Source: Escherichia coli (GTDB taxonomy: Bacteria; Pseudomonadota; Gammaproteobacteria; Enterobacterales; Enterobacteriaceae). From it: a DNA stretch of 39,954 bases. The notes below the pieces were generated by a model. That model saw nothing but the letters and a program-made list of their open reading frames with translations. It did not search any database and had not been told where the DNA came from. Within the stretch, counting starts at the first letter, position 1; every line of letters begins with the position of its first letter. The stretch lies in NCBI RefSeq assembly GCF_003334255.1, contig NZ_QOWU01000053.1. The stretch is one strand, 5' to 3'. The position numbers and the translations under genes were made by a program. This document shows positions 1,313-1,418 of this stretch, piece after piece.

Positions 1313-1418
1313 AAAAAAAACCCGGCATAGGGGACCGGGAAGAGGATAGTCTGCCGTCTCCAGACTAATAAACCGTTATAACACTCCCTGTTGGCACGGG
1401 AAACTTTGTGCTCTCAGT
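1313..1418 (-). ncRNA. gadY: GadY small RNA, antisense to the gadX 3' UTR
   Basis: Minus strand reads ACTGAGAGCACAAAGTTTCCCGTGCCAACAGGG...CCCGGTCCCCTATGCCGGG followed by T8, matching the GadY sequence as I recall it; stem-loop plus U-run terminator at its 3' end (1313-1345). Confidence 0.8.

Follow-up and report, generated by a model that had tools for sequence, protein, structure and literature searches.

The feature at positions 1313–1418 of the window, by which we mean the whole 39,954-nt stretch of Escherichia coli DNA analysed here, is almost certainly the E. coli gadY gene, earlier named IS183. Its identity, position, strand, terminator, promoter sequence, complementarity and conservation could be read from this sequence. 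The minus strand of the segment was identical at 106 of 106 positions to gadY of E. coli K-12 MG1655 (b4452, NC_000913.3 3664864–3664969). The initial annotation had placed gadY here without giving its strand; the coordinates match the MG1655 annotation to the base, the strand is the minus strand, and in the alignment to the reference gene, which had been proposed as a check, divergence was absent along the entire length. An Rfam scan of the whole window recovered the GadY family (RF00122) at 1421–1308 on the minus strand as a full-length covariance match spanning model positions 1–114 of 114, scoring 150 bits (gathering score, 45; E = 5.2e-32), with each aligned base equal to the model consensus. 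A score and E value of this order exclude a chance resemblance to GadY. The gene is already known, and the present copy is the reference itself and not a relative of it: sequence, position, orientation, promoter and terminator are those of GadY from K-12 MG1655, and the gene is without a single difference, while the host is not K-12.

The gene lies antisense in the space between gadX and gadW, with the same spacing as in MG1655 (Table 1). The last base of the gadX stop codon is at 1296 and the 3' end of gadY at 1313, 16–17 nt further on, so that the overlap concerns the gadX 3'UTR and the gadX–gadW intercistronic RNA, and not the gadX open reading frame. The overlap with the gadX 3' region that had been claimed for gadY is therefore correct for the 3'UTR and the intercistronic region, but does not extend to the gadX coding sequence.

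Table 1. Coordinates of gadY, its signals and structural elements, and its neighbouring genes in the window.
Feature	Position	Strand	Description	Basis
gadX	472–1296	+	AraC-family acid-resistance activator, regulated target; 274-aa ORF	annotated in identical and near-identical genomes
gadW	1664–2392	+	AraC-family regulator; 242-aa ORF	annotation
gadY sRNA gene	1313–1418	−	106 nt in the MG1655 annotation, 105 nt in the literature	identity to b4452; RF00122
gadY transcript ends	start, A at 1418; 3' end, U-tract 1313/1314	−		b4452 annotation
gadY −10 hexamer	1425–1430 (1430–1425)	−	TATATT, −12 to −7 relative to the start at 1418	read from the sequence
Putative gadY −35-like hexamer	1448–1453	−	CTGATC, weak, 3/6 matches to TTGACA; 17-nt spacer	read from the sequence
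GadY stem-loop 1	1372–1418, GadY nt 1–47	−	A-rich internal loop; first GGA at nt 32–34	MFE fold and Rfam consensus
GadY stem-loop 2	1347–1367, GadY nt 52–72	−	7-bp stem; GGA at nt 58–60, at the stem-loop junction	MFE fold and Rfam consensus
gadY intrinsic terminator	1313–1339	−	hairpin CCCGGT-CCCCTAT-GCCGGG (1339–1321), then T8 (1320–1313)	terminator scan
Sense target	1313–1418	+	gadX 3'UTR and gadX–gadW intercistronic segment of the gadXW mRNA	full complementarity to GadY

The window begins inside the 3' end of gadA, and its positions 1–2782 showed one mismatch in 2782 nt to MG1655 (blastn), at position 299 and far from gadY. This position lies in the gadA–gadX intergenic region upstream of gadX and carries C in the window and T in MG1655. 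Compared over its full 39,954 nt with E. coli G1/2, which was isolated from human faeces, the window shows 3 mismatches. The window includes the acid fitness island with gadX, gadW, mdtFE, gadE, hdeD, hdeAB, yhiD, dctR and slp, genes that are free of pseudogene flags in the annotation of G1/2. The initial annotation had taken the locus as a sign of a functional acid-resistance circuit, and this holds as far as the unflagged island genes of a strain only 3 mismatches away are concerned; rpoS, hfq, rnc and gadBC, which also belong to the question, lie outside the window. According to the literature, gadW is co-transcribed with gadX and is additionally read from its own promoter, which diverges from that of gadY (the title of Tramonti et al. 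2008 refers to the divergent gadY–gadW promoters).

An intact terminator had likewise been proposed, and was found on the minus strand as a stem of 6 pairs (1339–1321), 5 of them G-C, which encloses a 7-nt loop and is followed by TTTTTTTT at 1320–1313. A terminator scan of 1100–1800 on both strands returned this site (minus strand, 1339–1313) as the only one, with no second terminator-like site in that region. Read on the plus strand, the hairpin precedes AAGAGGATAG and a T run is lacking, so that it does not terminate gadX, which would fit gadX transcription reading through into gadW. Upstream of the transcript start, the −10 hexamer is accompanied by a weak −35-like hexamer whose assignment to gadY is our inference from the sequence; both hexamers are invariant in five aligned Escherichia lineages, and the 60 nt upstream of the gene are identical to K-12. 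A generic sigma-70 consensus scan of the 1100–1800 region did not call the gadY promoter because its −35 is weak, a miss that fits an activator- or sigma-S-dependent promoter and does not amount to positive evidence for such a dependence. The two promoter-like matches that the scan did return on the minus strand (1677–1648 and 1191–1163) were set aside as chance occurrences, as 2.2 were expected. AppY is known to bind the gadY promoter, and an AppY-responsive 8-bp motif has been reported to overlap the gadY −35 (PMC10057817).

In the minimum free energy fold, GadY adopts three stem-loops, the third of which is the terminator (nt 80–98), and this fold coincides with the Rfam consensus structure. 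The AU-rich linker UUUAUUA, nt 47–53, stands ahead of stem-loop 2, and two GGA motifs are present in the RNA, starting at nt 32 and nt 58. The fold energy is ordinary (−28.6 kcal/mol, z = −0.64), with 50 of 200 shuffled sequences folding as well, and as all paired positions are invariant across the lineages examined, covariation neither supports nor contradicts the fold. The GadY isoforms described by Opdyke in 2004 reportedly share their 3' end. Given this shared end, the forms of 105, 90 and 59 nt reported for K-12 (PMC5686845) would start at 1418, ~1403 and ~1372, respectively, and the last of these presumed 5' ends falls within the AU-rich linker.

Expression, isoforms, nucleases and downstream effects of GadY are carried over here from K-12 experiments in the literature, and the mechanism they describe would apply to this strain by analogy. 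Transcription from its own minus-strand promoter, starting at 1418, would yield a GadY RNA of ~105 nt with three stem-loops, the last of which would act as the intrinsic terminator. Encoded opposite the gadX 3'UTR, this RNA would pair perfectly with the gadX–gadW intercistronic part of the gadXW mRNA; the complementarity is perfect over 106 nt, and the resulting 106-bp duplex was computed at −218 kcal/mol. GadY is described as stabilising the oppositely encoded gadX mRNA via its 3'UTR in two sources, both citing Opdyke et al. 2004 (PMC10057817; PMC3333887), which backs the role that had been assigned to it in the initial annotation. This role is right but dated, and the fuller account is a directed processing of the bicistronic mRNA into stabler halves. 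GadY raises both gadX and gadW through RNase III processing of the gadXW transcript (PMC3937726); the processing is placed within the GadY-paired region, with RNase III participating (PMC3937726; PMC3919570), and cleavage persists in rnc mutants (PMC3919570). This persistence implies a further nuclease. The long GadY–gadXW duplex would thus be a substrate for RNase III together with at least one more nuclease, and the separated gadX and gadW halves would accumulate above the level of the unprocessed transcript. More GadX would in turn increase the expression of gadA and gadBC and, with it, glutamate-dependent acid resistance.

With respect to its regulation, the accumulation of GadY in stationary phase depends on rpoS (sigma-S) (PMC3333887), and overproduction of SdiA raises gadY promoter activity (PMC7286202). 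In the present strain, transcription of gadY may be expected to follow the reported pattern, being RpoS-dependent both in stationary phase and under low-pH conditions and responding to GadX/GadW, AppY and SdiA. GadY is Hfq-dependent, and when it is blocked by dCas13a, both gadX mRNA and survival at pH 2.5 decrease (PMC10783499). It has furthermore been reported to titrate CsrA, leading to PGA-dependent biofilm, and AppY-driven biofilm formation reportedly requires it (PMC10057817). A 2024 paper reports SdiA as a GadY target (PMC11300174). Binding of Hfq and titration of CsrA would thus probably accompany the pairing with gadXW in this strain as well.

Analysis of complete E. coli genomes revealed that gadY together with its promoter (148 nt) is present in 5413 of 5426 genomes and always on the chromosome. 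The 148 nt were at least 99% identical in 5380 of these 5413 genomes, and 29 of 30 evenly spaced rows were 100% identical, whereas the surrounding 501 nt reached at least 99% identity in only 2587 of 5414 genomes. The gene is missing from 13 of the 5426 genomes, and a few carry two copies. In one E. coli lacking it, the river-water strain KFu015 (NZ_CP147130.1, 1831–3790), an IS1A element adjoins gadW, ccp is truncated and gadA, gadX and gadY are all missing, which looks like an IS1-associated deletion. An older statement holds that gadY occurs in only a few strains (PMC3333887); its near-universal presence in E. coli, together with its presence in other species-level lineages of Escherichia, corrects this view.

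The distribution beyond E. coli was approached with an exact 22-mer in one genome per bacterial species, which gives a lower bound. The scan returned three loci, all from Escherichia (L007, L008 and L009), with flanks 83–93% identical to the window and each with a full-length Rfam GadY match of 143–150 bits. It returned no typical E. coli, although the 22-mer is invariant in the aligned E. coli strains, so that its silence should not be read as a lack of gadY from E. albertii, E. fergusonii or other genera.

Comparison of the divergent lineages revealed a strong disparity between gadY and its surroundings. AVS0093, SMS-3-5 and O157:H7 showed no differences in gadY and the 60 nt upstream, whereas the 3' part of gadX differed by 6.7%, 6.5% and 1.7%, respectively. 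In the most divergent lineage, L008, the difference amounted to 22% in gadX, 13.8% in gadW and 44% in the 16 nt that separate the gadX stop codon from gadY; the sole change in gadY was an additional A within the internal loop of stem-loop 1, where it is unpaired, and this is also the only change found in any lineage. Taken over the divergent Escherichia lineages, 0–1 changes per 106 nt of gadY compare with a divergence of 6.5–22% in gadX and 3–14% in gadW. For five divergent lineages whose flanks differ by 4–18%, the binomial probability of so few changes in gadY ranged from 9e-3 (SMS-3-5) to 1.6e-8 (L008). As judged from these comparisons, gadY is under purifying selection. The conserved block begins near the −35 and is lost ~4 nt beyond the T-tract, so that selection acts on gadY and its promoter as a unit. 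The 16 nt from the gadX stop codon to the 3' end of gadY (1297–1312, plus strand) form the most variable stretch of the locus, 19–44% different in L007–L009, and directly abut the invariant block.

We considered whether this conservation could belong to something other than an antisense RNA gene. A small protein would be the simplest candidate, as a 31-aa ORF (1376–1471, minus strand) overlaps the 5' part of gadY. The start of this ORF lies 53 nt upstream of the point where gadY transcription begins, the ORF is frameshifted in L008 by the 1-nt insertion at 1408 and it covers just 43 of the 106 conserved nucleotides, and the search for an ORF of at least 20 aa within the gadY transcript returned none. 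The small-ORF reading was rejected on these grounds and is, in our estimation, next to impossible. Only slightly less improbable is a conserved element acting mainly on the sense strand, either in the stability or termination of the gadX 3'UTR or as an intrinsic processing site of gadXW, with the antisense transcript being incidental. The hairpin at 1321–1339 does form in the sense RNA too, and a constraint acting on both strands could help explain how extremely gadY is conserved. Yet the T run that follows the hairpin on the minus strand is replaced on the plus strand by AAGAGGATAG, and the conserved block takes in the gadY −10 and −35, which have no role in the sense RNA. In the primary K-12 literature, plasmid-borne GadY supplied in trans is said to restore gadX and gadW accumulation in a gadY promoter mutant. 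The GadY-dependent effects described for K-12 likewise speak against a purely sense-strand element (PMC10057817; PMC10783499; PMC3937726). We thus retain gadY as an antisense RNA gene with its own promoter and terminator.

The extent of the conservation exceeds what its pairing with gadXW would require, because a cis-antisense pair stays complementary however it is mutated and pairing alone does not explain the near-zero variation of gadY. Being far more conserved than the flanking protein genes, the sequence of gadY suggests constraints beyond antisense pairing. It is conceivable, in a tentative reading that we do not favour, that the conservation reflects demands beyond the cis role, such as trans targets, the titration of CsrA and Hfq or recognition by nucleases on both strands, possibly with trans functions as the main selected role. 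We consider it unlikely, and less plausible than that broader reading, that the main importance of GadY in vivo lies in a trans activity, be it the sequestering of CsrA, competition for Hfq or the regulation of further mRNAs such as sdiA, and that selection preserves this activity and not the cis-antisense one; such a role would add to the main explanation without excluding it. It would agree with the GGA motifs at nt 32 and 58, one of them at a hairpin loop, with the CsrA titration and the need for GadY in AppY-driven biofilm formation (PMC10057817), with SdiA as a GadY target in the 2024 paper (PMC11300174), and with the shortfall of pairing as an explanation of the near-zero variation. On the other side, the loss of gadX mRNA and acid survival upon dCas13a blocking of GadY (PMC10783499) means that the cis role is real, and a comparable conservation could also be obtained from the GadY fold, Hfq binding, nuclease sites and the sense RNA combined.

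As a cis-acting antisense RNA, GadY resembles OOP RNA/cII-O of phage lambda and the type I antitoxin RNAs of the pairs Sok/hok, IstR/tisB and OrzO/zorO, in all of which a short antisense RNA pairs perfectly with an mRNA over an extended duplex. These RNase III-dependent pairs share with GadY that the mRNA is cut within the duplex and that residual cleavage is seen in rnc mutants (PMC3919570). In contrast, the OOP, Sok, IstR and OrzO pairs lower the expression of their targets, whereas cleavage directed by GadY splits a bicistronic mRNA into stabler halves and raises expression (PMC10057817; PMC3937726). A further difference is that GadY binds Hfq (PMC10783499), while OrzO does not need Hfq (PMC3919570).

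With gadY characterised since 2004 and no difference from the reference in this copy, the finding carries little weight as a discovery, and its value lies in the annotation. It had been suggested that an open reading frame track cannot reveal gadY, and indeed the PGAP RefSeq records give no feature under it (1313–1460, 'none' in 30 of 30 rows); of the records compared, only the curated MG1655 entry annotates the gene. As PGAP leaves the locus blank, marking gadY completes the regulatory map of the acid fitness island of this strain.

Further small RNAs were detected in the window by the Rfam scan. Two full-length matches to AgrB (RF02891) at 16706–16789 and 16937–17020 (minus strand; 108 and 106 bits), between arsR and dinQ (17295–17378, plus strand), are the agrA/agrB antisense RNAs of the dinQ type I toxin locus. 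Like GadY, AgrA and AgrB are small intergenic antisense regulators from the same neighbourhood that are found by Rfam and missed by ORF calling; unlike GadY, they belong to an unrelated family, act on the dinQ toxin mRNA and have no link to acid resistance. A borderline match to ES036 (CssrF) was obtained in the uspB–pitA intergenic region (25798–25838, minus strand; 42 bits, gathering score 37.6), with three outer stem pairs being non-canonical. A match to the ES205 sRNA was located at 7200–7271 (minus strand; 105 bits against a gathering score of 86), just downstream of gadE (7389–7916, minus strand). The position corresponds to the gadE 3'UTR ahead of mdtE. A PGAP 'hypothetical protein' ORF (7110–7388, plus strand) is annotated opposite ES205 in a near-identical strain and may be spurious, and the sRNA match recurs in the divergent Escherichia lineage L008 at 6009–6080.
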